NCBI GenBank assembly: GCA_000004695.1
Contig: CM000151.3
Coordinates: 1,824,001-1,888,000, forward strand
DNA: 64,000 nt
Source: Dictyostelium discoideum
Taxonomy: Eukaryota
Reading direction: 5' to 3'
Shown: one piece after another, positions 2,463-56,673 of the stretch
Position numbering within the stretch: position 1 is the first letter of the stretch
How the letters are laid out: each line of letters opens with the position of its first letter
The notes under the pieces: generated by a model
What the model saw: only the letters and a program-made list of their open reading frames with translations
What the model was told of the DNA's origin: nothing
Database searches by the model: none
Translations under genes and position numbers: made by a program

Positions 2463-3368
2463 ATGAAAATTAAATTAATTTTAGTTTTAATTGTTTTTTT
2501 AACAATAGTAAATGTTAACAATAGTATTGATTTATGTTTATCAAATCCAAAGAAAGCATTAGTTAATCAAGCATGCAAATATTCAACAGATTGTGAATAT
2601 CCATTATTTTGTGGTAGTGGTAATGGGTATGGTAAAAATGCGACATGTTCTAAAAACATTGAAACTGGTGGTAGTTGTGAATCAAATAATCAATGCACAC
2701 CGTGTAATGTTTGTTTTAATGCAAAATGTAAAGTCAAGCTTTATCTTGGTGATGCTTGCGATGAAAATAAGAGCTATTGTTCAAGTTCAGTTTGTATAAA
2801 AGGTAAATGCTCGATTCAAGGTGATGTTTGCACTGCCAATAATCAATGTAAATTCAATAACTACTGCAAATCTGGTAAATGCGTTCCATTAGAGAAAGAA
2901 GGTTCATCATGTGATAAAGACTCAAGTTGTTCATTAACCAATGCTTGTGTCGGTGGTAAATGTGTCACAAAGTATCAAAAACCATTAGGTGCTGTTTGTA
3001 ACTCGTCAAATGAATGTCAAGTATTCTCTGGCCACGTTTGTGGTGCCAATGGTAAGTGTTCAGTTTATAATCAACTATTATCAAAATGTAAAGAAAACTC
3101 TGATTGTGGTCCCAATGGTATGTGTATGTGCAAGAGTGAAACTGAAAATGTTTGTGTTGATTTATCAGTGGGTGCTCTTAAAAATGATAAATGTCCATCA
3201 CTACTCTCCTCTTTCTCCTCTTGTATGACTCGTGAACGTTGTACTGAGAATACTCCAACCGGTTGCCCAAAATGTTATCCAATTTTCATGTGTTATCAAT
3301 ATTCATGTTTCTATATGAACCAATTCATTAGATCAACCCAAAATTATTATAAATCATTTTGTTCTTAA
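2463..3368 (+). CDS. secreted cysteine-rich repeat protein (301 aa; signal peptide, ~40 Cys in repeated C..C..GKC modules)
   Basis: Intact ORF with an ATG start. The N-terminus MKIKLILVLIVFLTIVNVNNS is a signal peptide. Recurrent motifs include CKSGKC, CIKGKC and CVGGKC. It is a paralog of the minus-strand gene 24141..25067. Confidence 0.8.
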   Translation: MKIKLILVLIVFLTIVNVNNSIDLCLSNPKKALVNQACKYSTDCEYPLFCGSGNGYGKNATCSKNIETGGSCESNNQCTPCNVCFNAKCKVKLYLGDACDENKSYCSSSVCIKGKCSIQGDVCTANNQCKFNNYCKSGKCVPLEKEGSSCDKDSSCSLTNACVGGKCVTKYQKPLGAVCNSSNECQVFSGHVCGANGKCSVYNQLLSKCKENSDCGPNGMCMCKSETENVCVDLSVGALKNDKCPSLLSSFSSCMTRERCTENTPTGCPKCYPIFMCYQYSCFYMNQFIRSTQNYYKSFCS

Positions 3369-3686
3369 GTAGTACTAAAATAAAATTAAAAAAAAAAAAA
3401 AAAAAATACCTGTTTGTCCATAAAATTATATAAGAAAAAAAAAAAAAAATTAAAAAAAAAAAAAAAAAAAAGGTATTGAGTAATTCCTCCCAAAACCTCA
3501 AAACCTTAATAAAAATTTTTATTTTTTTTTTTTTTTTTTTTCACTTTTTCCAAAACAAATAATACATTTCACTAAATAATTTGTATCTCTTTATTTCTTT
3601 ATATTTTTTTTTTTTTTTTTTTTTTATTTCTTTATATTTTTTTTTTTTTTTATTTGTTTTTTCTTTTTTTTACAATTTTTTCAATA

Positions 3687-3732
<46 letters not shown>

Positions 3733-4380: not shown

Positions 4381-5867
4381 GTAATATTATTATTAATATT
4401 GATAATAATAATAATAATAATAATAATAATATTAATATTAACAATAATAGTGAACCTATGATAATCATGGATTCAAATAGTAATAATAGCAATAATAGTA
4501 GTAATAATAGTACATCACCATCGGAAGCAAATGATGATATAAAAAATAATAATAATAGTATTAATAATAATAATGATGGTAGCAATAGTAACAATAATAG
4601 CAATATCAATAATAATGAAAAAGCTTTTACTTTATTAAGTGAAACTTGTAAGTTCTTTTTCTTTCTTGTTAACAATATTGATACTATATATATATATATA
4701 TATATATATAAATATTAATTTATATATTATTAAATTTATTTCTAGATATGGATGTCTTTGGAATATTACCATCTAAAGACCCATTAGTTTTAGTGGTTTG
4801 TCATAAATGTTCAAAGCCTGTTAAAAAATCAAGATTCATTAATCATTTTGAAAATTGTTTAGGAACAGGTGGTAATAATAATTATTGTAATAGTAATAGT
4901 GGAGTTTTAGACAATACTAGTAGTGGTAATAGTACTACGGCAGCGGTAAATGGCGATACAACAACATCATCAGTAGTAAATGATTCAAATATAAATTCAT
5001 CAACAACCTTAACAGCACCAATTACACCAAATCCAGTGACTAATGCAAAAGGAAATAAATCAAATCCTTCTCCTGACCCAAAGAAAAAAGTAAATGCAGG
5101 TATAGGAAGAGGTAGACCAAAGAAAAAGGTTGATCCTCCTAAAATACCAGAAGTAATCACAACTCCAATTGTTGATTCAACCACCACTTCTACTTCTACT
5201 TCTACTTCTACTACTACTACTACTACTACTTCTACCCCTACAAATACAACCATTGAAAATCTATCACAATCTTCTTCTCAATCATCCTCACAATCATCTA
5301 ATAATCTAGATACACTTATAGCAACAAACAATCCCACCAACACCACTACCACCACAATAAATAGTACAGATGTATTAATACCGACAAATGCAACAACCAC
5401 ATCAACAACAACAGCAGCAGCACCAATAACACCAACAACAACAACAGTAACAACACAACCAACAGAACAACAAGTTGTAAAAAAAATGGGGGCAATGCAA
5501 CCATTAACAGCAAGAAAAAGGAACTATGATTCTTTGAAATCATCTTCGTCCTCTACACCAATTGTTCCAAGTACAAACAAACCTTCACTTGAAACTTGTC
5601 CTGAAGGTGATACACCATCAAAAAATACTTTAGATACTAATAATGATAGTACAACAACAACAACAACAACATCAGCAACAGCAACAACATCAGCAATCGC
5701 TTCTCCAGGAGCAACAGCAGCAACAGATACTAATACTACACCATCATCATCAACCACAAATGAACCAAGCAGTAATGTTAATAATTCTGAAGATTCTACT
5801 AAAATTGATAAAATGGAAATAGATGGCGATAATAATACTTCCGATAATAATAATAGCAATAATGGCA

Positions 5868-5924
<57 letters not shown>

Positions 5925-6007
5925 GTAGCAATGATAATAATAATAGCAATAATAATAATGATAATAATAATGATAATGATAAAAATATCAACAACAACAA
6001 TAATAAC

Positions 6008-6042
<35 letters not shown>

Positions 6043-6753
6043 TAGTAATAACAACAATAAAGAAGAAACTAAATTAGATACAAAATTAATTAATTCAATA
6101 GGTTGTAATGGTATAGTTACAATGGTAGTACCATTAGCATATAGAACTCTTAATTGTAGTATCATTAATGAGAATAAAAGATTTAAGAATTTATTTTCAC
6201 CTGAAAAAGTTAAAGTTTCATTAACATCTGAAGATGATACTGACGATTCAGATGATAATGATGGTGATGATGATACAACAATGATGATGACGAATATAAA
6301 TAATGAAAAGAAATCTTCAAATAAAAATAAAAATACCATTATTACACCATTAGGTATATCACCATTACTAATTAATGATATACTTTTAAATGCATCAATG
6401 AGAGCAAAAAATTATCAACAACAATTATTAATGCAACAGCAATTACAACAACAATTAAAACAACAACAAATACAGATTCAACAACAACAATTGATACTAC
6501 AACAACAAGCTCAACAACAAGCTCAACAAGCTCAACAACAAGCTCAACAACAAGCTCAACTACAAATGCAACAACAGCAAATACAACAACAACTGCAACA
6601 ACAGCAACAACAACAACAACAACAACAACAATGGACTTCTCAACAAACACATACAAATACAACACCAAATATGGTTTCAAAGATTTCAACAACGCCACAA
6701 ACTAGCAATAATAGTAATAAACCTACATATGCACCACCACCTCAATTCCAGAC

Positions 6754-6836
<83 letters not shown>

Positions 6837-8559
6837 GTAACACCAATATTAATAATAACAATAATAATACATCAATGAATCCACCAACACCTAATTCTTC
6901 AACATCAATGAATCCACCAACACCAAACACTTCAATGAATCCACCAACTCCAAACACTGTAAATACATCAATGAATCCACCAACTCCAACACCTGCAACA
7001 CCTTCAACACCTTCAACAATGATGAATCCTCCTACACCTGTTACAAATAGTATTTCAACATCATCTTCATCAGTACCAACCACAACCACAACTACAACAA
7101 CAACAACAACGGAAAAAGAGAGTAAAAAAGAATCTAAACCAAAGAAATTAACTAAAAAAGAAAAAGAAAAACTAGAGAAAGAAAAGGAAAAAGAAAAAGA
7201 AAAAGAAAAGAAAAAGAAATCTAAAAAAGATAAAGATAAAGAAAAAGATAAAGAAAAAGAAAAAGATTCTGAGAGTAAGTTTATTTTTTTAAAATTATTA
7301 ATTATTATTGTTTTAAGAATTGATTATTAATAATTTTTCCATTCATTTTTTATTTTATTTTTTATCCGAACACCCAAACAGAAAAATCCAATTCCAAAAA
7401 GAAAAAGGAAGATAAAAAACTTAGCAATAGTTCAGGCGCTGTTACAGCATCGATTATTAGCGAATCACCAACTGCAGCATCATTAACAACTTCAACAACA
7501 GCAACAGCAACAATGACAACAACAACACAACCACCTGTATTAGTGCCAAATCAACCTCCAACACCTAACCAATTGGTAAATTCAATGTCACCATCACCTT
7601 CACCAACAATACAACAACAAAATATTCTACCAACACAACAAATTCAACCACAAATTCAACCCCAACAACAAATACAATCACCCCAACAACAATTCCAACA
7701 ACCACAACCACATCAACAACAATTCCAACAACCACAACCACAACCACAACAACAACAAAATATATCACATTTACAACCTCCACAAATTTTACAACAACAA
7801 CAACAACAAATACAACAACAATTACAGCAACAACAATTACAACAACAACAGCTTCAACAACAATTACAACAATTACCTCCACAAATACTGCAACAATTAC
7901 AACAACAACAATTACAACAACAACAACAACAATTACAACAACAACAACAACAACAACTTCAAACACCACAAATTTTACTTCAAAATCAAAATCAAAATAT
8001 AAATATGAATTTAATTAATCCACAATTATTCCAAGCAAATCAAATGATGTCATCACCAAATATTGTTTATGCAAATTCTCCATTACCTCAAAACCAAAAT
8101 CAAAACCAACAAAATCAAAATCAAAATCAAAACCAACAACAAATATTAACTCAACAACAATTACAACAACAACAATTATTAAAACAACAACAGTTACAAC
8201 AACTTTACTATAGGCAATTAGCACAACAACAACAACAACAGCAACAGCAACAACAACAAAATAATACTCAATTAAATAATAGTGGAGGATTTCAACAACA
8301 ACAATTTGCAAATAATAACCTAAATATACCCCAACAACAAGTACCATCACCTCAAATTGGGCAACAACAACAACAACAACAATTACCTCTTGGAATTCAA
8401 CCTCCACCCCAAATAATACAAAATATGCAACAACAACAACAACTTCAACAACAACAATTACTACAACAACAATTACTACAACAACAATTATTGCAACAAC
8501 AGCAACTACAACAATTACAACAACAACAAAACAATAATAAACAATATATTCCACAATAA
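3873..8559 (+). CDS. three-exon gene encoding a ~1490-aa low-complexity nuclear protein with an Sgf11/ataxin-7-type C2HC zinc finger and an AT-hook; exons ~3873..4647, 4746..7274, 7382..8559
   Basis: Introns run from GTAAGT at 4648 to AG at 4745 and from GTAAGT at 7275 to AG at 7381. Both are phase 1 and AT-rich, and they join track ORFs 3873.., 4748..7330 and 7513..8559 in frame, as checked codon by codon. The zinc-finger motif is CHKCSKPVKKSRFINHFENC (C-x2-C-x12-H-x3-C with the SRF..H.E.C signature). The AT-hook is GRGRPKKK. The protein also carries poly-N, poly-T and poly-Q runs, TSMNPPTPN repeats and a KEKEKE tail. Confidence 0.7.
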
Positions 8560-8688
8560 TTAAATACTAGAATTATTTGTGGAAAATAATATTTATTTTA
8601 AATTTATAATTATTTTTATTTTTATTTTTATTTTTTTATTTTTTTTTTTCTTAATATAAAATACAAAGTGTTTTTATTTTTAAATTGA

Positions 8689-10610
8689 TTAATTTGATTT
8701 TTCATGATCATAACCATAATCAATACTATTACCCAAAGTTGAGTTATTATTATTGTTATTATTATTAATAATTGGATTTGAAGAAGATGATAAATCTTTT
8801 TGAGTTACAACATCTAATTCTTTGGAATTAGCATTAGCATTATCATCAGTCATTGGAGTATCACCATTTAATTCATCCAAAACTGATTGATCAATTTCTT
8901 TGAATCTATAGGCAATAATGATAAAGATAAAGATGAATACAAACATTACAGAACCAAATAATAATGATAAAACATATTCTGGTAATTCAATTAATTCAAT
9001 TACAAAAGCATCAAACATATTACCAATGGAAACACAAATTAACCAACCTGCAATTACCAATGATTTCATAGAACGTGGTGAATTTGCATAGGCAAATTCT
9101 AAACCAGTGATTGATAATAAAACTTCAGCGGCAGTCAAGACAACATATTGTGGTATTTGTAAAGCGATATGTACAGATTCTGGTGGAGAGTTATCAATAT
9201 GAACTTGAATAATAGCTGAAATGTAAAATGCAATCACAGACAAAAACATACCGGTACCCATTCTACGAAGGAGTGTGAAATTAATCTTCTTTCTTTCCAA
9301 TGGACGATAAATACCATATTCAAAGATTGGTACGAAAATCATAACCAATAATGGATTAATACAATTGATAATTTCAGAATCAATTTCCCAACTTCCTAAA
9401 TGTCTATCCATAGAATTGGCTTGAATAGTCCAACGAGTACCAGTTTGATCATACAAAGCCCAGAAGAATGGTAATGGTACAAACACTGTTAAAACTCTTA
9501 ATACCAATTTCACTTGTTCAACAATTCTTGGTGAATATTTTAATTTGGCTCTGTCCAAGAAACTATTGTTATAGTAATGGTCATTGTATTTACTACCACG
9601 GAATGTTTTCTTTACACTTTCAGAGATACCGGTACCAACGATACAGAATGCAGTTGATAAAACGGATCCTTGTGGTTTACGTTTAACATATTGTTTATTA
9701 CCAACTAAATAAATTAAAATTGAAATAATTAATATACCAGCTGGAATTACAAATGCACACCAATAACCAACATTAGTTCTTAAAATTGGTGAAAGAATTG
9801 ATGAAAAGAATGATCCTAAATTTACACACCAATAAAATACTTGGAAAAGATTTTGAAGTAATTTCTTTTGATGTGGACCAAATTGATCACCACAAAATGA
9901 ACTTACAACTGGTTTAATACCACCTGTACCAATTGCAATACAAGTTAAACCAACAATTAAACCTAATTTTTTTTTTTTTTTTTAAAATAAATTTAATTAA
10001 TAAATTATTTTAATTTTTTAATTATTATTTTTTTTAAAATAGTATTTAAATATTTACCCCATGGTGATCTTTCACCTGGACTGTCACCAGTAATTCCTGG
10101 AATTGCAGTAATTGAAAAAATAGCAGCTCCAAAACAATATAAAATACTGAAATATAAAATTGTTTTGTATTTTCCTAAAACACCATCAGCAACATAAGCA
10201 CCAACAAGTGAACTTTTTTTTTTTTATAAAAAATAAATAAATATTAATAACTTTTTAATATTTTTTAAAAATTTAATGAAATTTACTTACAAAATATAAG
10301 CACCAGCATTAAAACCGTGACCAATTGAAGAAGCATTTTTTTCAGAATATCCCATGAAACTGATTAAATAATTTGTTAAAATACCTCTTAAAGCATAGTA
10401 TGAATACCTTTCACAAATTTCATTACCCATAATATATTTAATTGATGATGGAAAATGATTTTCATCCCCTCCATAAACAAAAACTTCATTATCAATACCT
10501 TCCATATCACCTTGTTTACCTTTAGATGAACCCTTTCCATCAATTGATGACCCTAAATTATCAATTGATGTTGATACACCAGAATTTGATGATTCTTCTT
10601 CTATCGCCAT
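8689..10610 (-). CDS. proton-dependent oligopeptide transporter (POT/PTR2 family), 3 exons: 10610..10291, 10212..10058, 9962..8689 (~582 aa)
   Basis: PTR2 signature 1 is GNEICERYSYYALRGIL. Exon 2 encodes GAYVADGVLGKYKTILYFSILY. Exon 3 encodes GTGGIKPVVSSFCGDQF and FYWCVNLGSFFSS. The donors are GTAAGT and GTAAAT, the introns are AT-rich (~78 and ~95 bp), and the phases are consistent. Confidence 0.85.
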
Positions 10611-10634: not shown

Positions 10635-10665
<31 letters not shown>

Positions 10666-10966
10666 TGGTTCCCTTTTTTCCAAAAATAAATTTTTTTTTT
10701 TTTTTTTAACTATTATTTATTATTTTAATGTTATTAATAGATATTAATTTACAAAGATTTTGATTTTTTAAGCTATTAATACCACAAAAGGAATGGTATG
10801 TATATTTATAAATTTTTTTTTTATTATTATTTGGGGGTTTTTTTTTTTTTTTTTTTTTTTTTTATTTATTTATATATTTATTTATTTATTTATTTATTAT
10901 ATTAGTATTAATATTTAGTATTAAAAAACCAATAAAATTTCTTTAAACCGAATCTTCTAAAAATTT

Positions 10967-11008
<42 letters not shown>

Positions 11009-11042
11009 TTTTTATTTATATTATCATATATATATATATATT

Positions 11043-11340
11043 ATGAATAACATTTATTTATTTGAATTTCCCAAATATTTAAGATAATTTTTTAGAATGT
11101 TCTAGAACATTCGAAGAATAAAAAATTTTCGAAAGAAAAGTAAAAATTTCGAACCGGCACAATGACGCGATCATTGCGCAAGGTCGAAAAACTGAAAAAT
11201 TCCGAACCGACACTATGCACAAAGTTGTGAAGGGTCGAAAACTCTTATTTTTTTGAGTTTTGCTAAATTTTTAAGAAAATAAAAACGTATAAATAGTGGC
11301 ACTAAAAACTAAAACAATTTGATTTATTTTATTTGGGAAT
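11043..11340. repeat. DIRS-1 left inverted terminal repeat
   Basis: It is the reverse complement of 15481..15782 over ~300 bp. Shared strings include ...cgaaccggcacaatgacgcgatcattgcgcaaggtcgaaaa.... Confidence 0.85.
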
Positions 11341-11463
11341 TCCTCCTATATATATTTAAGATACACACACACACAAATTTTATACAAATAATTATTTCTC
11401 TTTATTAATTTTTAATATTATTATTTTTTCTCATATTATAATTTTAGATATCAACAATAAAAT

Positions 11464-12470
11464 ATGTCTACCACTGTTAATAATAATGATGCCTCTAGTA
11501 GTAGTACCTCTGCCTCTAATAGCGCTGAATCCTTTGATTTAAGAATGAAATCAATGGAGGATCAAATCAACAACCTTTCCTTAGCCTTTACAAGATTCAT
11601 GAAAGAACCTATGTTCTCTTCTAATACCAACTCACGTAGCCAACCTTCTCATGATAACTCTGACACCGAGAATGAACAAAGTGAAGATGAATCAAGTAAC
11701 AATGTCGATGTTCCAACCGATTATCAATTATCCGATACCTTACTTGGTCAGTACAAACATATGGTAAACAATAAAGGTTTACTCGTCGAAGAAGAATGTA
11801 TCCTCAAGAAAGATGAGATATCCGAATTGAATAAAGTATTCAACTTTCCATCTAACTTCCAAGTGAATGTCGCTCCATTCGGTACACCTGAAGGTATTAC
11901 TGTATCATCCAACGTCAAGAACAATGATACTGATTGTTGATTGTCGAAAAGCGAATCAACGATAGCTTGAAACCTTTGCTTCTCATGTCAAGTATGTTAT
12001 CATCTGATAGCTCTAATGTCGATGTAGAACTTATTAGTTACTTAACTCAGAGTGCAATCGTCTTAGCCGTTAACGCTCAAGCATCGCTTAGTCGTGTCCG
12101 TCGTAACAACATCGCTAAAGAAATCTATGGTTCTGAAGTACTCTTACCAATTAAGATCAAGGATACACCAAAGATGTTTGATGAAACTGAAACTGAACGT
12201 GTAAGAAAGCTAGCCAAGTCAATCAGAAAGAACAACGAAGCTAAACAATCATTGTTAAAATTGAATTATCATTCCAAGTCCAATGTCAAGAAATCAGTTA
12301 ACTCAAGTGGTAATAACACTACAGGAAACAGTAGTAATAGTAAATCCAGTAGTGGGAGTAATGGCCGATCTAACAACTTCAATGGATCACCAAGTAATGT
12401 TGCATCAGGTAGCAACAATACCAAGTCTGCCAACGGTACCAACAACCGTTTTCAGAAGAACAAGAAGTAA
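11464..12470 (+). CDS. DIRS-1 ORF1 (gag-like), present as two overlapping ORFs (11464..11940 frame 1; 11934..12470 frame 0)
   Basis: Two adjacent ORFs overlap by 7 nt. The products are S/N-rich with no recognisable domain. This may be one gene interrupted by a frameshift. Confidence 0.55.
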
Positions 12471-15384
12471 ACTTACCAGTAGGTGGACGTCTGTTCCACC
12501 ACAAACAAGTTTGGAAAGAATTGGGTCTTCCAAACTTTTGTCAAGAGGTCGTAAATGGATTAAAAGTCCATCTACTTCCAAACTTCAAGCCGATGCCAAA
12601 CCCAATTCCGATTTCAATTCCAGAGGGTCCAAAATCAGATTGCATCACAAAGGAAGTACAAGACTTGTTATTAGACGATGCCATCGAACAAGTACTTCCA
12701 AACCGTTATTCAAAGCGCGTTTTTTACTCCAACGTGTTTACGGTTCCAAAACCTGGAACGAATCTACATCGTCCAGTTCTCGATTTAAAAAGGTTAAACA
12801 CTTACATCAACAACCAATCATTCAAGATGGAAGGAATCAAGAATCTACCATCAATGGTCAAACAAGGTTATTACATGGTAAAACTCGATATCAAGAAAGC
12901 TTACCTCCACGTTTTAGTAGATCCGCAATACAGAGACTTATTTCGCTTCGTGTGGAAAGGTTCGCACTACCGTTGGAAAACAATGCCGTTCGGGTTATCG
13001 ACAGCTCCTCGTATCTTTACAATGTTGTTAAGACCTGTACTTCGAATGTTGAGAGATATCAACGTATCCGTCATCGCATACTTGGACGATCTATTAATCG
13101 TCGGTTCAACAAAAGAAGAATGTTTATCCAACCTCAAAAAGACAATGGACTTACTTGTCAAACTAGGTTTCAAGTTAAATCTAGAAAAGAGTGTTCTCGA
13201 ACCAACTCAATCAATTACATTTCTCGGATTACAAATCGATTCGGTATCAATGAAGCTTCTTGTTCCCAAAGAAAAGAAGAAAAGTGTCATCAAGGAAATA
13301 AGAAACTTTTTAAAACTAGATTGTTGCTCCCCAAGAAAGCTTGCTGGTTTAAAAGGAAAGCTAATCGCACTGAAAGATGCAGTCATCCCTTTCAGACTTT
13401 ACACTCGTCGAACAAACAAGTTTCACTCTCAGTGTCTGACTCTAGCCAATGGAGATTGGGATCAATCATTCCCCATTCCTCAAGAGGTCAAGTCAGAGAT
13501 TTCACATTGGTTAACAGTTCTAAACCAATGGAATGGAAAAGAAATCAGTCTGTTTCCAAGTTACGACTATGTTCTTACAACCGATGCCTCGGAATCAGGT
13601 GCAGGTGCCACACTCAAGAAAGGAAACAAGGTAATCAAAACTTGGTCATTCCAGTGGTCAACAACTCAATCAAACATGTCGTCAAATCGTCGAGAAATGC
13701 TCGCGCTGCTAATGGCCTATCAAGCGCTATGTCAGAAACTGAACAACTGCAAGCTGAAGATCCAAACCGACAATACTACCACTCTCTCATACATCAATCG
13801 CCAGGGTGGTCAGATACAAGATCTCTCAGTTCTGTTCGAACAACTTTGGAAACAATGCCTCAAGAAGAAAGTGAACTTGATTGGAGAGCATATTCCAGGA
13901 TTCTTCAATGTAAAAGCCGACCACCTCAGTCGTCTTTCAGAGATGAATCACAAATCATCGACCAGAGTAATCAAGAGTTACATCTGGCAACTGAAGAAGG
14001 AAGTGTTCAATCGCATCCAACTTCAATTCGGTCAAATACAGATGGATCTGTTCGCATCTCACCTCAACCATCAAACGAACAACTACTCAACAATAAGAAT
14101 GAATGCACTCAACCTCGATTGGAGTCAATGGAAGCAATGTCTGGCCTTTCCACCACCCATTCTTTTGCCTTCTATCCTGGAGAAGATGAACTCATCCAGT
14201 TCGAAGAAGGTTTCTATAATACTGATCTTCCCAATCTGGAGATCAGCAACTTGGTATCCGATGATTCAAGCACAAGTTCCTCGTCATCATCGTCACATGT
14301 TTCCTCAAGTACTGGGAACATTCCAAGAAGTATTGACCAAACAATCAGTAGAGTCGATACCAATCCAGATTCAACAACGTTGGAAGCTGGGGATTATTCA
14401 ACTTTCCAATCTCATGTAATGTCCTTCGCTCGTACAACAAATACAAAAACAGCTGAGCTGTTAATGAAGTCATGGGAACCTTCAACTCTCAAAGTATATA
14501 GCTCCAGTTATACAAGATTCCGCAATTTCTGTACTTTGAACTCTTTGAATCCAGCAAACATTACCTTAGTTGTTTTCATGGATTATCTTACACATCTATT
14601 CAAACACAAACCTCCGTTAGCTTTCTCAACTATTAACGGTCATCGATCTATGTTGAATCAGTTGTTACTCCTTAGGAATCAAACTGATATTGTTAATGAT
14701 CCATTCATTACAAGAATTATGACTGGTATTCACAAGTTGCGTCCTTCATCTGCAAAGTATAAAGAGATATGGGATGCAAATCAAGTATTCAAGCACTTAT
14801 CTACTATCAAAGTCATCCCCAAGTACACATACACTGCGCTATTAAACAAGACACTTGTACTCTGTAAAATGTTTGGTTTAGCAAGATCATCAGACTTGGT
14901 GAAGTGGTCGTTCAAAGGTCTCATTATTACTCCTGACTCAATCAAAGGTCCCGTTATTAATGCTAAAGAACAAAGAAGTGGTATTGTTTCAATCTTAGAA
15001 TTAACATCGTTAGATGATACTAACTCTCAAGTGTGCCCTGTTCGCCACCTTGCAACATACCTTAGAGCATCTAAAGGAAGAAGAAAGCCCCATTCGGGTG
15101 ACTCTGTCTTTATTAAGAATGAAGGTGAACCGCTCCAAGTTAATGATATTAATTCAATTGTACTATCAACACTCTCAAAGTCAGGTATTGATATTGTCAA
15201 GTTCAAATCTCACTCTACCCGTTCCGCTATGGCTTCTCTGCTGTTGTCCAATAACGTTCCGTTCCACGTTGTCAAAAAGATGGGTCGTTGGAAATCAAAC
15301 GATACTGTAGATACCTTCTACGATAAAAGAATCATTGGTGAAAAATCTGGTGGTTTCTTAAATACTGTCGTCCAAATTTCATAA
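12283..15384 (+). CDS. DIRS-1 long overlapping ORF (frame 1, 1033 codons). The C-terminal ~330 aa is a tyrosine recombinase (YR)
   Basis: The C-terminal segment from ~14420 onward reads ...MKSWEPSTLKVYSSSYTRFRNFC ... RHLATYL ... HSTRSAMASLLL ... GRWKSNDTVDTFY, which gives an R..H..R..Y catalytic arrangement. The N-terminal ~2.1 kb overlaps the RT ORF in another frame without stops, a known DIRS-1 peculiarity. Confidence 0.75.
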   Translation: MSRNQLTQVVITLQETVVIVNPVVGVMADLTTSMDHQVMLHQVATIPSLPTVPTTVFRRTRSKLTSRWTSVPPQTSLERIGSSKLLSRGRKWIKSPSTSKLQADAKPNSDFNSRGSKIRLHHKGSTRLVIRRCHRTSTSKPLFKARFLLQRVYGSKTWNESTSSSSRFKKVKHLHQQPIIQDGRNQESTINGQTRLLHGKTRYQESLPPRFSRSAIQRLISLRVERFALPLENNAVRVIDSSSYLYNVVKTCTSNVERYQRIRHRILGRSINRRFNKRRMFIQPQKDNGLTCQTRFQVKSRKECSRTNSINYISRITNRFGINEASCSQRKEEKCHQGNKKLFKTRLLLPKKACWFKRKANRTERCSHPFQTLHSSNKQVSLSVSDSSQWRLGSIIPHSSRGQVRDFTLVNSSKPMEWKRNQSVSKLRLCSYNRCLGIRCRCHTQERKQGNQNLVIPVVNNSIKHVVKSSRNARAANGLSSAMSETEQLQAEDPNRQYYHSLIHQSPGWSDTRSLSSVRTTLETMPQEESELDWRAYSRILQCKSRPPQSSFRDESQIIDQSNQELHLATEEGSVQSHPTSIRSNTDGSVRISPQPSNEQLLNNKNECTQPRLESMEAMSGLSTTHSFAFYPGEDELIQFEEGFYNTDLPNLEISNLVSDDSSTSSSSSSSHVSSSTGNIPRSIDQTISRVDTNPDSTTLEAGDYSTFQSHVMSFARTTNTKTAELLMKSWEPSTLKVYSSSYTRFRNFCTLNSLNPANITLVVFMDYLTHLFKHKPPLAFSTINGHRSMLNQLLLLRNQTDIVNDPFITRIMTGIHKLRPSSAKYKEIWDANQVFKHLSTIKVIPKYTYTALLNKTLVLCKMFGLARSSDLVKWSFKGLIITPDSIKGPVINAKEQRSGIVSILELTSLDDTNSQVCPVRHLATYLRASKGRRKPHSGDSVFIKNEGEPLQVNDINSIVLSTLSKSGIDIVKFKSHSTRSAMASLLLSNNVPFHVVKKMGRWKSNDTVDTFYDKRIIGEKSGGFLNTVVQIS
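12521..14419 (+). CDS. DIRS-1 pol: reverse transcriptase plus RNase H (frame 2). The track 'start' is TTG; the frame is open upstream into the end of ORF1
   Basis: RT motifs PQYRDLFRF, YLDDLLIVG and FLGL are present. RNase H motifs are VLTTDASESGAGATL, QTDNTT and NVKADHLSRL. The frame is offset by -1 from ORF1b, which suggests a gag-pol frameshift. Confidence 0.85.
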   Translation: MGLPNFCQEVVNGLKVHLLPNFKPMPNPIPISIPEGPKSDCITKEVQDLLLDDAIEQVLPNRYSKRVFYSNVFTVPKPGTNLHRPVLDLKRLNTYINNQSFKMEGIKNLPSMVKQGYYMVKLDIKKAYLHVLVDPQYRDLFRFVWKGSHYRWKTMPFGLSTAPRIFTMLLRPVLRMLRDINVSVIAYLDDLLIVGSTKEECLSNLKKTMDLLVKLGFKLNLEKSVLEPTQSITFLGLQIDSVSMKLLVPKEKKKSVIKEIRNFLKLDCCSPRKLAGLKGKLIALKDAVIPFRLYTRRTNKFHSQCLTLANGDWDQSFPIPQEVKSEISHWLTVLNQWNGKEISLFPSYDYVLTTDASESGAGATLKKGNKVIKTWSFQWSTTQSNMSSNRREMLALLMAYQALCQKLNNCKLKIQTDNTTTLSYINRQGGQIQDLSVLFEQLWKQCLKKKVNLIGEHIPGFFNVKADHLSRLSEMNHKSSTRVIKSYIWQLKKEVFNRIQLQFGQIQMDLFASHLNHQTNNYSTIRMNALNLDWSQWKQCLAFPPPILLPSILEKMNSSSSKKVSIILIFPIWRSATWYPMIQAQVPRHHRHMFPQVLGTFQEVLTKQSVESIPIQIQQRWKLGIIQLSNLM

Positions 15385-15480
15385 TATATATATATATATG
15401 ATAATATAAATTAAAAATTTAATTTATTAAATTATATTTTATATTAAATATATATATATATATTAGTCCCATCCCACCCG

Positions 15481-15782
15481 CCCTTAGTCGGAATTCCATA
15501 AATCAAATTGTTTTAGTTTTTAGTGCCACTATTTATACGTTTTTATTTTCTTAAAAATTTAGCAAAACTCAAAAAAATAAGAGTTTTCGACCCTTCACAA
15601 CTTTGTGCATAGTGTCGGTTCGGAATTTTTCAGTTTTTCGACCTTGCGCAATGATCGCGTCATTGTGCCGGTTCGAAATTTTTACTTTTCTTTCGAAAAT
15701 TTTTTATTCTTCGAATGTTCTAGAACATTCTAAAAAATTATCTTAAATATTTGGGAAATTCAAATAAATAAATGTTATTCAT
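15481..15782. repeat. DIRS-1 right inverted terminal repeat
   Basis: Mirror of the left ITR. The inner ends diverge slightly (ggaattccgac versus ttgggaattcc). Confidence 0.85.
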
Positions 15783-16650
15783 AATATATATATATATATT
15801 TAATATAAAATATAATTTAATAAATTAAATTTTTAATTTTATTACTTACAATGATAAAATAAAAATAAAAAATTATTATACAAATACAAATATAATACAG
15901 ATAATAATACAGTTATAATAATAAAAAAATAGTTTATTATATAAAGTAAATTATATATAAATTTCTAAGGAAAAAGGGGAATGAAAGGAAAATATTAAAA
16001 AAAAAAAAATAATTTCTTTATAAATAATTTTTTTTTTTTTTACTGGTTAAAAAAAAAAAAAAAATAAATCAAAATAAAAAACAAATAAATAATTATAAAA
16101 TTAGCCATTAAAAATATCTGTCCTCTCCTATTAATTCTATTTTTATTTTTTTTTGTTGCTTCGGAATTATTTCAAAAAAAAAAAATAAAAACAATCGGTT
16201 TCCAACCGAATCTTTTTTTTTTGTGGATTTTTTTTGGATTTTTTTTTATTTTTTTTTATTTTTTTTTAGATTTTTTTGGATTTTTTTTATCCCTTTTTTG
16301 TTAAATAATGTTGTGAAATTTTAAAAATGAACAAAAAATTGCAGATGAAAAGGTTCATTGCGAATAAAATTATTTTGTTTTATTAAATATTTATTGTAAT
16401 TTGTTTGATTGATTATGAACCATCACAACCGAAAATTCTTTTTTTTAAGTTTAAAAAAAAAAATTATGATTATATGGCAGGAAGCCAATCTCAAAAGTTC
16501 TGGATTTTTTTCAAAAAATAATAAATAAGACCTACATTACACAAAAGTTTTTATTTTTAAAATTTTTTTTCTCGAATAAAACAAGTTATACTTTTTTTTT
16601 TTTCTTTTACTTTTTTTTTATTTTAATAATAAAAAAAATTAAGATTAGAA

Positions 16651-16714
<64 letters not shown>

Positions 16715-17722: not shown

Positions 17723-18215
17723 ATGAGTCTTGAACTATCATTAAAAGAATTATTCTTAAATATTCCCAAGTGTTGGGAAACAAAACCAAATAAAACCGAA
17801 TATATGCAATTTTTATATCAAGAAGCAGTGGATATGGGAGTTTGGAGAAAAGATAATGAAATTGATATATTAACACATCATCATGTTACTGATTTATCAA
17901 GATTCTTTTGGCCAAAAGCTGACTTTGAAGGATTAGTATTAGGTGCAGAATTAATGGTTTGGTTTTTTGCATTTGATGAATTATTCGATGGTGGCTTCAT
18001 TGATGATGATGAGGATGAGCAATATACAATACACTGAACTTGAAACAAGTTTTGTTAAATCTTATAAATGTACTGCAGGTTTTAATTCAAATTTAATTCC
18101 AATTGTTGATCACGTAAGAAGTTTATCATATGAAAGTATAAGTTGGTCAGTTCAAACCCCTCGTTATATTAGTCAAACCAATCCTTTTGTTGAGTTAAGA
18201 AGAAATACTAAATAG
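17723..18215 (+). pseudogene. terpene synthase relic: N-terminal ~100 aa fused to C-terminal ~60 aa of a paralog of the TPS gene at 20774..21823, with an internal ~230-codon deletion, a frame break and a mutated DDxxD motif
   Basis: MSLELSLKELFLNIPKCWETKPNKTEYMQFLYQEAVDMGVWRKDNEIDILTHHHVTDLSRFFWPKADFEGLVLGAELMVWFFAFDELFDGGFIDDDEDEQY aligns with residues 1-100 of the intact gene. ...TELETSFVKSYK...SWSVQTPRYISQTNPFVELRRNTK aligns with its C-terminus. The two pieces lie in different frames. The motif is DELFD instead of DDLFD. Confidence 0.75.
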
Positions 18216-18420: not shown

Positions 18421-20193
18421 TTAATTTCTTGAAATTAATTTAATTGAGAATGGTATTGGGTGTATGGAAATACCTGAAACTTCTATATCTTTTAATTGCA
18501 TTCCATCAATGGACTTAATTTGAAAATTTAAAATAATATTTGCACAAACACTAAATAAATTTAATTCAGCAATTGATATACCTACACAATTTCTTGGACC
18601 AGTGGAAAAAGGTAAACAAACCCTATCAAGATCATTGAAATAATTATTATTTTGTATTGGTTGTGGTTGTTGTTGCTGTTGCTGTTGCTGTTGCTTTTGA
18701 TTATAATAATTTATCCATCTATCTGGATTAAATACATTTGGTTCATCAACATATAGATGACTCATACCAAATGCATTTGAAAGTATTTGAGTACCTTTTT
18801 CTATAAAAAAACCATTAATTTCACAATTTTGAGTTGCAATTCTTGGAACTGATAATGGAAGTGGTGTTCTTATTCTTAAAACTTCTTTAATAACATTAAT
18901 TAAATATTGACAATTATCTCTTTCTTTTAAAGATATAAACTTTATTTTACTTTCATTATTATTATCGCCCAATACAGAAATTAATTCATTATAACATTTC
19001 TCTTGAATGGCTGGATTATTAATTAAATATAAACATACCCATTCAAGTGTTGCTGCAACTGTATCATCACCAGCAAAAACAAAACTCATACAACCTTTAA
19101 TAATACTAATTTTCTTTTCTTCTAAAGTTGTATTTGGTGAATTTGTAAATTCATATTCAATGAAATAGTCCATTAAATCTCTAGGATTTGATTTATCAAA
19201 TTTTAATAAATGTTGATCATAAATTTCTTCCATAAATTTGAAAACTTTACTAGCACTATTATTTAATTTTTTATATTCATTTTTAAAAAATGGTCTTAAA
19301 ATTTTAATAAAATCACTAATATTACCAGTTCCTAATAATAAAAATACTTGTTGAATTGGTTCTGTTAATTTTGTAATTGGATCATTATCAATATTATTAT
19401 CATTAATATTAATTTGTTTTTCATCATTATCTTGTTTAAACATTATTCCTAAAACAATACTAATTGAAAATTTACCAAAATATTTTTTAGATTTAAACTA
19501 ATAATTATCAAAAAAAAAAAAAACAATTAGCACTATATTAATATATTTTAAAAACTTTAGTTTAATAACTATAAATATTCTAATACTTACTGGTTCATTT
19601 ATTTTTGAATGAGTTCTCATTGAATTAATTAAAATTTTAGTTTGATTTTCAATAACTTCTTTATAGTTTGATATTATTTTTGTTTTTGTAATTGATGATG
19701 AAACTATTTTTCTAATTACCGGCCACTTTTCATTATAATCAATAAATATTAAATTTACACCTCCACCAGTAAATGATTCAAAGCTTTTTAATCTTGGTCT
19801 ATCTGAAAAATTTGTAAATTGTTTAACCATAATTTCTTTATTTATTGATGGGTCTGTTACAATTACAGTTTTAATATCACCAAGCCATAATGAGAATATT
19901 CCTCCATTTTTTTCTACCAATTTTGTTAAATTTCTATGTGGATTAACTCCAAGTTTATAAAGATGTCCAATTATTGGCAAAGCATATGATAAAGTTGGTA
20001 CATCATACTTTTTAACTTTATTTTTCTTTATCTATTATTAAAAATAAAATAAAATTTTTAGTTTATTATAAATTTTTTAAAAAAAAATAATAAAAATATT
20101 AAATAATACAAAATAATTAAATATAATTATATTTACAAAATCAAAAATTAAAAAACAAACTAAAAAATAAAAAATTAATAATAATATATTCAT
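18421..20193 (-). CDS. cytochrome P450 monooxygenase, 3 exons: 20193..20137 (19-aa hydrophobic anchor MNILLLIFYFLVCFLIFDF), 20031..19591, 19497..18421 (~524 aa)
   Basis: The heme-binding loop is FSTGPRNCVGISIAE (F..G.R.C.G). The I-helix motif is AGDDTVAATLEW. The ExxR motif is EVLRIRTP. The N-terminal region reads ALPIIGHLYKL. Donors are GTAAAT at 20136 and GTAAGT at 19590, acceptors at 20032 and 19498, all exons are phase 0 and the introns are AT-rich (~105 and ~93 bp). Confidence 0.85.
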
Positions 20194-20773
20194 TAGTTAT
20201 TTTTAAATGCATAAATAATTAAAATGAATATTATTATTTTTTTTTTTTCTATTCTTTTTATATGATAAAATTATTTATTTTTTTTTTTTTTTTTTACAAA
20301 AAATTAAAATATAATAAAAAATCAGTTGAAATACATTCATCAAATAAATAATTTATAAATAAAACTAGCATTAATAAATTATTTCTACCAATTCTGACAC
20401 CCAGAAAATAATCTTTTTTTTTTTTTTCTTCAATTAAACTTGTTCATTAAAAATTTTTAAAAAATAAATGGGGGTTATTGTAAAAGTGGTATTAAAAAAA
20501 AAATTATTTTTTTTTTTTTTAAAAAAACAATCTCTTAATATTATTTTCTTGTCACCCAAGAGTGTTGATTTAAATTTATGGAAAACATGATTACAAAAAA
20601 GAATTTATATTATTCTAAAAAATATCAAGATTAACAGATAAAAAAAAAAAAAAAAAAAAAAACTGACCAAACTAAAAATATGAAATTAAAATAAATAATA
20701 TTAAAATTTGAATATTTAAATAGAAAATAATAATGATTTATTTAAATTATTCTTAAAAAATCAAGTGAAAAAA

Positions 20774-21823
20774 ATGGATATTAAAAATCTATCATTAAAA
20801 GATATAAAATTCCCTAAAAGTTGGGAAACAAAACCAAGTAAAATTGAATACATGCAATTTGTTTATCAAGAAGCAATTGATATGAAAGTTTGGAGAAAAG
20901 ATAATGAAATTGATATATTAACACACCACCATGTTACTGATTTATCAAGATTCTTTTGGCCAAATGCTGACTTTGAAGGATTGGTATTAGGTGCAGAATT
21001 AATGGTTTGGTTCTTTGCATTCGATGATTTATTCGATGGTGGTTTTATTGATGATAATGAAAATGAACAATATAGACTAGTGAATAGAATGAATAAAGTA
21101 TTCTTGGAAGGCACCATTGAGGATGACTCAACTGGTGCAGAGAGAATGGGGTATTATTTAAGAAATAAAGTTAGAGCAATATGTGGAGAGAAAAGACAAT
21201 CAACATTCCACCGTTTCAATAGCTCCTGCGTTCAATGGGTAGATTCAATAATACCATTTATTAAATTAAAAAGAAATCAAAAATCATTAGATTTCAATCT
21301 ATACATTCATCATAGAAAATTCAATATTGGTGCAATACCTTGTTTTTTGGTATCTGAAATCATTCTTGACCCAATGTCAAATATTGAATGTTTTATTTGG
21401 TTAGATTCAAGATGGATTAAAATGTCTGAAATCATTTGTGAAATAATTGCACTTGTAAATGATTGTGTATCCTATGAGAAGGAAATCAAAGAGAATGGTG
21501 CACCTTTAAATTCTCTAAAATTTATTCAAATTGAAAAGAATTTAAATTTACAAGAATCATTTGAATATATTTCAAATTATTTAAATGAACTAATTAACCA
21601 ATACATTGAACTTGAAACTAGTTTTATTAAATCCTATAAACCTATAACATCCAATTACAATTCAAACTTTATTGCAATAGTTGAACACTTACATAATATG
21701 TCATTTGCCAATGTTTCTTGGTCTACTCAAACTCCACGTTACCTTAGTCAAACACAACCATTTCTTGAATTAAGAAGAAATAAAAAAATTATTACAAAAA
21801 TTTATGATTTAAAAAATAAATAA
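20774..21823 (+). CDS. class I terpene synthase (Dictyostelium TPS family), 349 aa, unspliced
   Basis: The DDxxD motif is FFAFDDLFDGG. The NSE/DTE motif is LVNDCVSYEKEIKE (ND..S...E). The real ATG is at 20774; the track start at 20765 is GTG. The gene is divergent from the P450 gene, with a shared 5' intergenic region of ~580 bp. Confidence 0.85.
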   Translation: MDIKNLSLKDIKFPKSWETKPSKIEYMQFVYQEAIDMKVWRKDNEIDILTHHHVTDLSRFFWPNADFEGLVLGAELMVWFFAFDDLFDGGFIDDNENEQYRLVNRMNKVFLEGTIEDDSTGAERMGYYLRNKVRAICGEKRQSTFHRFNSSCVQWVDSIIPFIKLKRNQKSLDFNLYIHHRKFNIGAIPCFLVSEIILDPMSNIECFIWLDSRWIKMSEIICEIIALVNDCVSYEKEIKENGAPLNSLKFIQIEKNLNLQESFEYISNYLNELINQYIELETSFIKSYKPITSNYNSNFIAIVEHLHNMSFANVSWSTQTPRYLSQTQPFLELRRNKKIITKIYDLKNK

Positions 21824-54398: not shown

Positions 54399-56673
54399 AT
54401 GAAAATTATTATATTATTTTTTATATTATATTTAGTTTCTGTTACGCTCGGAGTTTTAATTGAACCAGTTTTCAAGGGCAAATATTTAATATTTAAAAAT
54501 AATTTTAAAAATTCTTTTGATGGCAATCTAATTCACCATTATTATCAGATACACATGCCAACACTTGACCATGTAAATTTTTAGCAATATCAATTGTCAT
54601 GACAGCAGCGCATGTTCTTGTTGTGCTATTATTTTTACATTCAAAAACCAAGTCATAGATAAAATCTTGAAAATTTCATTTTTGAAAATATGTACTATCA
54701 ATATCATATGTATATTCCAATGATTGTTTTGTAATTTTAAAATCTGAAATTAAAATAAAATTATTAGAAAAAATTAGTGTTGGAGATATCGATATCTTTT
54801 AAAAAAACACAATGTATCGACAAATGATTTATCCTATTTAGTTTTTTATCGACTCAATTTTTAAAAACAAATAAAATGAGGTAGTTATTAATTTTAAATT
54901 ATTTTGTTAAAAAAATGCAACTCTTTTTTTTTTTTTTAGGTAATCCTTTAGGTGACTCAATAGATGCTACAAATTTATTACTCGATTATAAAGGTGGTTG
55001 TGGTACGAGAATAATTCAGTGGCCAAACGGTTATAAATATAGCTTTAATCATTCTAATCCAGTAATTGATAATATCTCTATTGAAAGCTCATCTTTTATA
55101 TCACTTGGTCATAATTTTTGTAATAGTCCCGAGTCAATTCAAGTTTATTTAGATGGTGTTCAAATTGATAAATCAAAAATAAAATAAAATCAATTGATCA
55201 TGAACAATTTGAAATTATTTACAGTCAAGAACATTCAAAATCCATCATTGTGAAAATTGTCTCTGGTGGACTTGAATCAAACAAATTCAAATTAGACTAC
55301 AAACCAATGCCATTAAAAATTAATAGTGTTCCAAGATTAAAAGGTGGTTCAATTACAATAATTGGTGAAAGATTATCATCACAAGTAAATAATTCAACAA
55401 TCATTGTTAAAATTGGTCAATATGATTGTAAAAATGTAATCTCATCAAAAAATGAAATTCTATGTAATTTAGAATCGGTTTCAAATGTTGAAAAAGTCAA
55501 ATTGGTAGATTTACCAGTTAATATCTCAATAAATGGCATTTTTAATGAAAATAATTTATTATTCTCATTCGATACTCCAATAATATCAGATTTTATACTT
55601 CCTCAAGGTGAAGTTAAATTAGTTGGCCATTGTTTTGGTTATTCACAAATAACTCAAATTAATATTGACAATGTATTACAATCCAACATAACAATTAATA
55701 TAAATGAAAAAGAAACAACACTTTTATTTAAGCCAATTCTTCCAATTAAAAAATCAAAGTTATATATAATTGTCAATGGTACAAAATCAAATACTATTGA
55801 AATTGATTCATCATTTTTTGTAAAAAGTGTTCCATCATCACCTTCAGTAAATGGCCAAACTGTAAACTTTACACTTTTCAATATAAACACAAATAATTTT
55901 AATGCAACACCAATTATGACTTTTCAAGATAATAGTTCAATTAAATCAACTGATTATAAAAATTCAAATGAATATTCCACTCATATATACTCTTTTGAAA
56001 TTCCAAAAAGTTGTGGTAGAAATGAAATTACAATAAACAAGTTTACAATTGTTCATTTATAAAATATAAATCTATCTCTTGTGATATTAAATTAGAAGGT
56101 CCGTTTGATCAACTTTGTAAAATCAAATTTAATGGTAAAGATGAGGAGAACAACATTTCAATATCATATTATCCTCCATTAGTATTAAATTCAACAACGA
56201 TTTCAAATTCATCGATTGGTGGAATTATTACAATTTTTGGTAATGAATTTTATAATGAAATTGATTTAATTACAGTTGGTAAAAGCAAATGTTTAAACTC
56301 TACATTTATAAATTCAACATCAATTTCATGTTTTGTGGAACCTTCAAATTTTATTATTAATCAAGCCAAACAACAACAACAACAACAATATGTTAACATT
56401 ACAATTAATGGTAAAAGTGGTGGCAATAATTTAAATATTTATTTTGATAATTCATTTATTGAAGTTAAAAATTAATCAAGCGAAAATGATAAAAACAACA
56501 ACAACAACAACAATGGTAGAAATAAAATTAATGATGATAGTAAAACTGATGGTAGAAGTTTGTATGAAAAATATAAAAAATATTTTATAGCACCTATAAT
56601 AATCGTTAGTTTGTCATTAATTATAGTTGCCTTTAAACTTATACTTTACTTTAATAGAAAAAATGGGCTGTAG
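54399..56673 (+). pseudogene. IPT/TIG-domain cell-surface protein pseudogene (Tgr/Tiger-like architecture: signal peptide, several IPT/TIG repeats, TM, short tail), disrupted by at least 2 frameshifts and an in-frame stop before the TM segment
   Basis: The signal-peptide ORF is 54399.. (MKIIILFFILYLVSVTLG). IPT-like modules read GGSITIIGERLSS...CKNVISSKNEILCNL and [44 protein letters not shown]. The coding segments 54915..55187, ~55196..56062 and ~56040..56475 lie in three different frames with no GT..AG introns between them. A TAA at ~56473 is followed in the same frame by ...YFIAPIIIVSLSLIIVAFKLILYFNRKNGL* (TM plus tail). Confidence 0.5.

Follow-up and report, generated by a model that had tools for sequence, protein, structure and literature searches.

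Dictyostelium discoideum DIRS-1 (GenBank M11339; Cappello et al. 1985) is described as restricted to the chromosome tips (PMC2665215), and the only exception named is an inner DIRS cluster on chromosome 2 (PMC2665215, PMC7192593). What, in that case, is the element that lies between ordinary genes in a 64-kb stretch of the D. discoideum assembly GCA_000004695.1 (contig CM000151.3, positions 1,824,001 to 1,888,000; hereafter the window), is it intact, and how was it inserted? An initial annotation of the window proposed an apparently intact DIRS-1 copy. The element is very probably a full-length DIRS-1 tyrosine-recombinase retrotransposon that has integrated on a chromosome arm, in AT-rich DNA between genes. 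Its identity and full length are supported by an end-to-end alignment at 99.94% to another DIRS-1 copy, by its terminal repeats and internal complementary region (ICR), and by its Pfam domains.

Boundaries and terminal structure

The whole insertion spans 11014–15838 on the plus strand when both copies of the ATT crossover trinucleotide are counted in (left junction 11014–11016, right junction 15836–15838, both plus strand). The element proper measures 4,822 bp and can be written as 11014–15835 or as 11017–15838, depending on which ATT is given to the target. The span of 11043–15782 assigned to it initially was too narrow by about 29 and 56 nt at its two ends. The AT runs that both ends had been thought to abut are in fact the terminal extensions of the element, which pair exactly with the ICR.

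The inverted terminal repeats (ITRs), annotated at about 300 bp, are each 302 nt long (left 11026–11327, plus strand; right 15498–15799, minus strand), and the left repeat is 100% identical to the reverse complement of the right. As in DIRS-1, they are inverted and not direct. A heat-shock-element-like array (GAAnnTTCnnGAAnnTTC) is located at 11095–11112 inside the left ITR and has its mirror copy at 15713–15730. The left repeat of DIRS-1 acts as the sense promoter and the right repeat as the antisense promoter (PMC3950715), and a heat-shock-inducible antisense DIRS-1 transcript is described in literature cited in the same study.

The ICR (15378–15465, plus strand, 88 nt) lies just upstream of the right repeat and matches both outer ends side by side. 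Its first 33 nt (15378–15410) are the exact reverse complement of the 33-nt left terminus at 11015–11047 (plus strand; register 26425). Its nt 34–88 (15411–15465) are the exact reverse complement of the 55-nt right terminus at 15782–15836 (plus strand), which includes the right extension beyond the ITR (15800–15836). The DIRS-1 ICR is likewise 88 bp with a 33 + 55 split (PMC7192593). The same source gives a canonical length of 4,814 bp, from which the present copy, compared by length figure, differs by its 4,822 bp. The cis elements for retrotransposition, comprising both ITRs, both terminal extensions, and the 88-nt ICR, are all perfect.

The inner ends of the two ITRs carry the sequences quoted for them initially (ttgggaattcc and ggaattccgac), and their difference had been read as a sign of end regeneration from the ICR. 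The difference amounts to only an 8-nt indel ahead of the common GGAATTCC, and the proposed link is wrong, since it is the outer ends with which the ICR pairs (PMC7192593).

The same ITR and ICR architecture, together with a long ORF overlap, YLDD and HSTR motifs, and an absence of target-site duplication, is found in DIRS1-like elements of fungi and animals (Piednoel et al. 2011, PMC3266345). Their termini are NTT, mostly ATT, with a 3-bp crossover (PMC3266345). These elements represent other families in other hosts, whereas the element in the window is the founding element itself.

Reading frames and the state of ORF1

Like DIRS-1, the element combines a gag-like ORF1 with overlapping reverse transcriptase (RT)/RNase H/methyltransferase and tyrosine-recombinase frames. 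RT, RNase H, and a Dam-like methyltransferase share one frame at 12413–14419 (plus strand), in which Pfam places RVT_1 at about 12743–13237 (1.9e-27), RT_RNaseH at about 13559–13903 (1.5e-10), and the methyltransferase at about 13955–14275 (Dam, 4.2e-12). The catalytic YLDD motif is encoded at 13079–13090. This frame is overlapped by a 1033-codon frame (12283–15384, plus strand) that ends in a tyrosine recombinase at about 14461–15321, with a Phage_integrase match of 4.8e-9 that exceeds the cut-off. The catalytic residues of the recombinase are present as R in LARSSD (14878–14895), HSTR (15211–15222), and Y in DTFYD (15310–15324). A tyrosine recombinase thus takes the place of a DDE integrase, as in DIRS-1. 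Both frames had been annotated as carrying their catalytic motifs and are, as read from the sequence, intact.

The description "apparently intact" holds for these two frames and for the cis elements; it fails for ORF1. The N-terminal part of ORF1 (11464–11940, plus strand) stops prematurely after 158 codons, and the C-terminal part continues in another reading frame at 11934–12470 (plus strand), where it matches residues 158–335 of the reference ORF1, a single uninterrupted frame of 335 aa. At the frameshift site (11934–11935, plus strand) the window has TT and the reference copies have TTT, which corresponds to a 1-nt deletion. A tandem TGATTGT, i.e. a 7-nt duplication, was considered as the cause of the frameshift; it gives the wrong frame, and the alignment supports the loss of a single T. 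As written, the window copy is not fully autonomous because the 1-nt deletion truncates the gag-like ORF1. The deletion in GCA_000004695.1 also sets it apart from canonical DIRS-1.

The stretch 11015–15836 aligns end to end with a copy at 5552–10374 of locus L001 in GCA_054883475.1 (CM142509.1), which lies in a terminal DIRS cluster, at 99.94% over 4,822 nt. The full-length copies compared are 99.94–100% identical at the nucleotide level, as expected of DIRS-1 copies. The L001 copy has the same length and the same ends. It is nested in another DIRS-1, interrupting its host at about element position 3250, whereas the window copy lies in unique intergenic DNA. In place of the many disabling changes that would mark a decayed element, three differences from this intact copy were found, namely two substitutions and one indel, and from 12280 onward the two copies match exactly. 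The three differences are clustered in 347 bp (p ~0.015, positions assumed independent). Such clustering is suggestive of a single event, namely a gene-conversion patch or a chimeric consensus, and leaves it uncertain whether ORF1 is truly frameshifted in the organism.

One explanation is that the organism itself carries a fully intact, autonomous copy and that the 1-nt deletion and the two nearby substitutions are an assembly artefact, in which the sequence of another DIRS-1 copy was taken into the consensus of the window repeat. The orthologous copy in GCA_054883475.1 speaks for it: this copy is 4,823 bp long, has the extra T (TTT), and encodes an intact 335-aa ORF1 that is identical to AX4 DDB_G0267292. 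The confinement of all three differences to 347 bp points in the same direction, as do the Ser variant produced by the substitution at 12279, which is common in other DIRS-1 copies, and the lack of any gene product equal to the 158-aa truncation in the protein collections. Against it, GCA_054883475.1 was built from Nanopore long reads together with Illumina short reads (PMC12745789), and polishing with short reads can make repeats uniform in favour of the majority sequence, by which a deletion private to one copy would be lost even if real. In that assembly the arm copy is 100% identical to the L001 cluster copy, and polishing of a repeat with short reads could be a partial source of this identity. 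A minority variant would, moreover, go unreported in collapsed short-read assemblies. Taken together, an artefactual deletion in an otherwise intact copy is a serious contender, with a probability somewhat below even.

The insertion site and its empty alleles

The element occupies an AT-rich intergenic spacer with a PTR2/POT transporter gene to its left and a P450 and a terpene-synthase gene to its right. The first exon of the transporter gene (10287–10610, minus strand) has its ATG at 10610, 403 bp from the element. The neighbours named initially were correct, apart from the terpene-synthase gene being partial; it lies about 1.9 kb from the element. No other DIRS sequence was found in the 64-kb window, and the ORFs around the element belong to host genes, as expected from the annotation of a solitary copy on a chromosome arm. 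The contig that carries the locus in GCA_054883475.1 is 3.62 Mb long, with the locus at about 1.85 Mb. In two wild isolates the locus lies at 1.85–1.90 Mb of contigs of 3.09 and 2.48 Mb. In all three assemblies, 0.6 Mb or more separates it from the contig ends. The copy is thus not placed in a centromeric DIRS cluster, i.e. among DIRS, DDT, Skipper, or Tdd at a chromosome tip, and its surroundings are those of host genes.

Orthologous loci were placed by exact look-up of the sphingosine kinase, a 301-aa DUF7107 protein, and its cluster member P0131; five other window ORFs yielded no exact match. Homologue searches with the PTR2 and P450 exons returned no D. discoideum orthologues, although the genes were called in L007 and L003, and a limit of the word index is the likely cause. 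The same insertion with identical junctions is present in GCA_054883475.1, a second lab-type assembly. The wild isolates GCA_054859355.1 and GCA_054859385.1 (L010 and L011) have an empty site that reads ...TTATTTTTT[ATT]TTATTACTTAC..., in which the window flanks are joined through a single ATT exactly as predicted. In the sister species D. dimigraforme, the PTR2 and P450 genes are 1.6 kb apart and no DIRS similarity was found. Two lab-type (AX4/AX2-like) assemblies carry the insertion, and two diverged wild isolates and the sister species lack it, a distribution that marks it as recent and polymorphic.

ATT is found at both junctions of the filled site and once in the empty site, the pattern expected of a DIRS1-like element with a tyrosine recombinase, and comparison of the filled window site with the two wild D. 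discoideum empty sites revealed no target-site duplication. The nested L001 copy likewise has ATT at both of its junctions. Integration very probably took the route that has been proposed for DIRS elements, which starts from an intermediate in which the two ends of the element are joined as templated by the ICR. Subsequently, the intermediate would recombine with a target ATT through the element's own tyrosine recombinase, a step whose enzymology is taken from the literature. This would leave ATT at both junctions without a target-site duplication, in agreement with the observed junctions and empty site. No specific target sequence has been defined for DIRS-1 (PMC2665215). A resemblance of the target to the circle junction beyond ATT(T) was considered and rejected; the additional similarity of the left flank is not meaningful because junction-like 18-mers with up to three mismatches are common in the AT-rich window (29, against 16.8 expected from shuffled sequence).

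Two other accounts of the location have to be weighed against integration on a chromosome arm. The highly repetitive nature of DIRS-1 and its reported restriction to chromosome tips (PMC2665215) would fit a centromeric copy that was misplaced during assembly. Identical junctions in two independent assemblies argue against misplacement, as do the ATT signature at these junctions and the fact that removal of the element restores the exact wild-isolate sequence; this account is scarcely credible. Only slightly more plausible, and still very improbable, is that the copy is part of the "chromosome 2 inner" DIRS region, a known non-centromeric site that is tied to the AX4 duplication and has been read as a neocentromere that failed (Gloeckner and Heidel 2009, PMC2665215). 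Two window proteins, sphingosine kinase A and DDB_G0272530, match AX4 proteins on the 8,484,197-bp (chromosome 2) record exactly, and one non-terminal DIRS region has been reported on this chromosome (PMC2665215), so that both sites are non-terminal and share a chromosome record. These protein matches also overturn a placement on chromosome 6, which the 3.6-Mb contig size had suggested. The inner region, however, is a cluster of several transposon types, in which four DIRS fragments occur together with DDT, Tdd, and Skipper and to which a 36-kb fragment is assigned (PMC2665215), whereas the window holds a single DIRS-1 between intact host genes and otherwise host genes over 64 kb. The same solitary copy is also present in GCA_054883475.1, which probably derives from AX2-214, a strain without the chromosome 2 duplication (PMC12745789). 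The preferred reading remains a full-length DIRS-1 that integrated in unique arm DNA.

Possible effects on neighbours and significance

In wild-type cells, transcription from both ITRs would be expected for this copy, as for other DIRS-1 copies described in the literature, and so would post-transcriptional silencing by the RrpC/AgnA RNAi pathway. A separate question is whether the insertion has been co-opted and, by acting as a promoter or by way of antisense transcripts or small RNAs, regulates the adjacent PTR2 or terpene-synthase/P450 genes. The element sits upstream of PTR2, 403 bp from its start codon, both ITRs of DIRS-1 act as promoters, and silencing signals that depend on RrpC spread 5′ and 3′ (PMC3950715). 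Antisense read-through would, in addition, run into PTR2 in the sense orientation. Reporter data indicate, however, that the right LTR promotes transcription only in the forward orientation (PMC3950715). From the antisense transcript that it drives, we infer that forward means into the element, and outward promoter activity is not expected. As wild isolates lack the insertion, it is not a conserved regulatory feature, and co-option is quite improbable.

A broader reading would take the solitary copy as a natural record of DIRS-1 integrating outside DIRS-1 clusters by simple ATT recombination and, at the same time, as a source copy in NC4-derived lab strains with effects on its neighbours. This combination is speculative and on balance unlikely, if less so than co-option. 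If true, the copy would be transcribed out of proportion in NC4-derived lab strains and supply them with DIRS-1 mRNA and small RNAs; such transcription is conceivable because its position is outside the terminal DIRS clusters, for which a heterochromatic state is described. Expression of PTR2 and of the terpene-synthase/P450 genes could then differ from that in wild isolates.

The element is of a well-known kind and is nothing new as a type. The copy is modestly notable because, on a chromosome arm, it runs counter to the usual account in the literature, which places DIRS-1 at centromeric tips only. The filled and empty alleles together provide a clean natural example of an ATT crossover, without target-site duplication, into a non-DIRS target. 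Because its flanks are unique, RNA-seq, small-RNA, and ChIP reads could be assigned to it without ambiguity, as is the case for few DIRS-1 copies. It also makes lab strains and wild isolates differ at a locus beside a terpene-synthase/P450 gene pair.

Element architecture and true ends

The element between the PTR2 peptide-transporter gene and the terpene synthase (TPS)/P450 locus is DIRS-1. This core observation of the initial annotation is borne out by inverted terminal repeats (ITRs) that are 100% identical over 302 nt (11026-11327 and the reverse complement of 15498-15799, by repeat search and alignment) and by the three coding regions that the ITRs enclose. The gag-like ORF1 lies upstream of the other two. 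The open RT/RNase H/methyltransferase frame (12413-14419) has Pfam hits to RVT_1 (1.9e-27), RT_RNaseH (1.5e-10), and Dam methyltransferase (4.2e-12) and harbors a YLDD motif (13079-13090). It is overlapped by a 1033-codon frame (12283-15384) whose C terminus is a tyrosine recombinase (Pfam Phage_integrase, 4.8e-9, above cut-off) with the catalytic residues (R in LARSSD, HSTR, and Y in DTFYD). Both ITRs additionally carry a heat-shock-element-like array (11095-11112 and 15713-15730). The RT frame lacks an ATG near its start, and its first 58 nt (12413-12470) coincide with the end of ORF1, in the -1 frame. Speculatively, this overlap would permit a gag-pol-type frameshift fusion, of which no discussion was found in the literature reviewed.

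A repeat finder detects a perfect 58-nt inverted repeat. Its first arm (15408-15465) borders the right ITR on the inner side, and its second (15782-15839) lies just beyond the right boundary originally assigned. In a register-by-register comparison, 15378-15410 is the exact reverse complement of 11015-11047, and 15411-15465 that of 15782-15836. These complementary segments (15378-15465) are the 88-bp internal complementary region (ICR) known for DIRS-1 (PMC7192593). Since the ICR matches 11015-11047 and 15782-15836, the element extends from ~11015 to 15836 (4,822 bp), and the earlier extent of 11043-15782 is too narrow. The ends were checked independently by end-to-end alignment with a reference DIRS-1 copy (positions 5552-10374 of L001, a terminal DIRS cluster locus of assembly GCA_054883475.1), which is 99.94% identical. 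The AT-rich runs previously described as (AT)n abutting the element belong to it, being complementary to the ICR and covered by this alignment. The ICR restores the outer ends, not the inner ends, of the element. Linking the differing inner ITR ends to ICR-based regeneration was thus a misreading; they differ by an 8-nt indel ahead of the shared GGAATTCC.

Filled and empty alleles

The orthologous locus of GCA_054883475.1 was located by exact-protein look-ups with window genes at about 1.85 Mb of contig JBTAPE010000001.1 (3,617,450 bp). Apart from homopolymer runs, this assembly hardly differs from the window. Because its proteins are nearly identical to those of AX4, and in view of the strain list in PMC12745789, it probably represents AX2-214 as assembled in that study. 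DIRS-1 is present there with junctions identical to those of the window copy (element length 4,823 bp; ORF1 intact, 335 aa). Long A/T homopolymers of the window (3637-3703, 10638-10642, 10834-10839, 10966-10972, and 16694-16712) consistently exceed their counterparts in GCA_054883475.1, the excess reaching about 19 nt, and they account for the greater part of the divergence of roughly 0.4-0.55% between the assemblies. To the right of the element, five intergenic substitutions fall within 9 nt (16477-16485; GC.GG...C in the window, AA.AA...A in GCA_054883475.1), which could have arisen by a small complex mutation or through a local error in either assembly.

Two further assemblies labeled D. 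discoideum, GCA_054859355.1 and GCA_054859385.1, were identified by elimination as the wild isolates OT3A and CR116C. In both, the terpene-synthase gene comes directly after PTR2, and no DIRS similarity is seen. Their intergenic sequence, ...TTATTTTTT[ATT]TTATTACTTACAATG..., corresponds exactly to the left flank of the window, one ATT, and the right flank. Gene order is the same in D. dimigraforme, where the 1.6 kb from PTR2 to P450 contain no DIRS. As the site is filled in GCA_054883475.1 and empty in two wild isolates and D. dimigraforme, the insertion is real and precise as well as derived and polymorphic. Perfect ITRs, together with just 0-3 differences from a cluster copy, speak for a young insertion; the 7-13% divergence of the wild isolates in this region provides only a loose bound.

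ATT is found on both sides of the element (11014-11016 and 15836-15838) and once in the empty site, and comparison of the filled with the empty site reveals no target-site duplication. The nested L001 copy follows the same pattern (host GATG-ATT-CAAG becomes GATG-ATT-[element]-ATT-CAAG). In agreement with these junctions, most DIRS1-like elements start and finish with NTT, most often ATT, and the arrangement fits a model of recombination between the 3-bp sequence at the junction of the joined ends and the same triplet in the genome (PMC3266345; PMC7192593). Further resemblance of the left flank to the circle junction was given no weight, as 29 junction-like 18-mers are observed vs 16.8 expected in the AT-rich window. 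The L001 locus itself (CM142509.1, 53-66 kb) comprises an outer DIRS-1 (L001 5025-5553 and 10374-11947), broken at about element position 3250 and hosting the complete copy, and more DIRS fragments of 96.8-98.2% identity.

The ORF1 frameshift

In the window copy, ORF1 is broken in two: 11464-11940 (158 codons) and 11934-12470 are not in the same reading frame. In a homology search, the concatenated pieces match many single-frame 335-aa D. discoideum proteins, including AX4 DDB_G0267292 (99% identity, full coverage). DNA alignment traces the break to a 1-nt deletion in a T run (TT at 11934-11935, TTT in the reference copy). The earlier description of an intact copy holds for the cis elements and for both the RT frame and the recombinase frame but not for ORF1, which is truncated as written in the window. 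The only other differences from the reference copy are two substitutions, one synonymous (12242) and one changing Pro to Ser (12279), a variant common among other copies; from 12280 to the right end the two are identical.

That all three differences fall within 347 bp of the 4,822-bp element (p about 0.015 assuming independence) suggests that they arose together, through a gene-conversion tract or through a consensus made chimeric by reads of another copy. The arm copy of GCA_054883475.1 is 100% identical to the L001 copy in the terminal cluster. Because this assembly was built from both Nanopore and short reads (PMC12745789), its repeats may have been homogenized. On balance, a frameshift truly present in the organism is slightly favored over an artifact.

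Chromosomal setting and proposed function

Exact AX4 matches to two window proteins, sphingosine kinase A (XP_645126.1) and DDB_G0272530, place the locus on the 8,484,197-bp record, chromosome 2. Apart from this single DIRS-1, no DIRS sequence is present in the 64-kb window. Its other ORFs are host genes, including an Sgf11-domain protein, the PTR2 transporter, P450, terpene synthase, sphingosine kinase, an ankyrin protein, a molybdenum-cofactor-sulfurase-like protein, and a Tgr-like protein (55250-56062, + strand, TIG/IPT and Ig_TgrO1 domains). [quoted passage not shown] In the literature reviewed, DIRS elements are described as almost exclusively restricted to chromosome tips, the sole named exception being a transposon cluster at the chromosome-2 duplication (PMC2665215, PMC7192593, PMC2995078). 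With its single DIRS-1 and host genes, the window is unlike that cluster, and the solitary copy also occurs in the presumed AX2-214 assembly, a strain without the duplication. The initial picture of a solitary, nearly intact arm copy is largely right.

The P450 (- strand) and terpene-synthase (+ strand) genes stand head to head (18421-21823), 580 bp apart in L003, the corresponding locus of GCA_054883475.1 (L003 6264-9666). On the other side of the P450, toward DIRS-1, lies a partial terpene synthase (17723-18215, + strand; N-terminal piece 17723-18037, C-terminal piece 17967-18215). Its orthologs in the wild isolates, called as 326 or 292 aa, run beyond the point where the window alignment stops (18026), which indicates an internal deletion specific to the lab-type lineage. 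A DdTPS2-CYP519C1-partial TPS arrangement has been described (PMC6524965); by spacing and neighbors, the pair appears to match this putative cluster rather than DdTPS8-CYP521A1, and 17723-18215 is probably the partial TPS beside CYP519C1. A protein homology search with the PTR2 and P450 exons returned no D. discoideum ortholog, though both genes are called in GCA_054883475.1 (loci L007 and L003), so this result is no evidence of gene absence.

According to the literature, transcription from the left ITR would yield the sense mRNA (about 4.5 kb), and transcription from the right ITR a long antisense RNA. The ICR would serve to complete subgenomic cDNA, which the recombinase would then integrate (PMC7192593; PMC3950715). 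In wild-type cells, DIRS-1 would be silenced post-transcriptionally by RrpC and AgnA. In reporter data, the right LTR is active in forward orientation only (PMC3950715), which we read as into the element; outward promoter effects on neighbors would therefore not be expected. Antisense transcription might conceivably read through toward PTR2, which is on the same strand at a distance of 403 bp.

The element itself was already known, and the corrections made here concern where it ends, what the ICR does, and the frameshift in ORF1. A solitary arm copy is mildly notable against the generalization that DIRS-1 is centromeric, and its filled and empty alleles provide a clean natural illustration of ATT-mediated integration.
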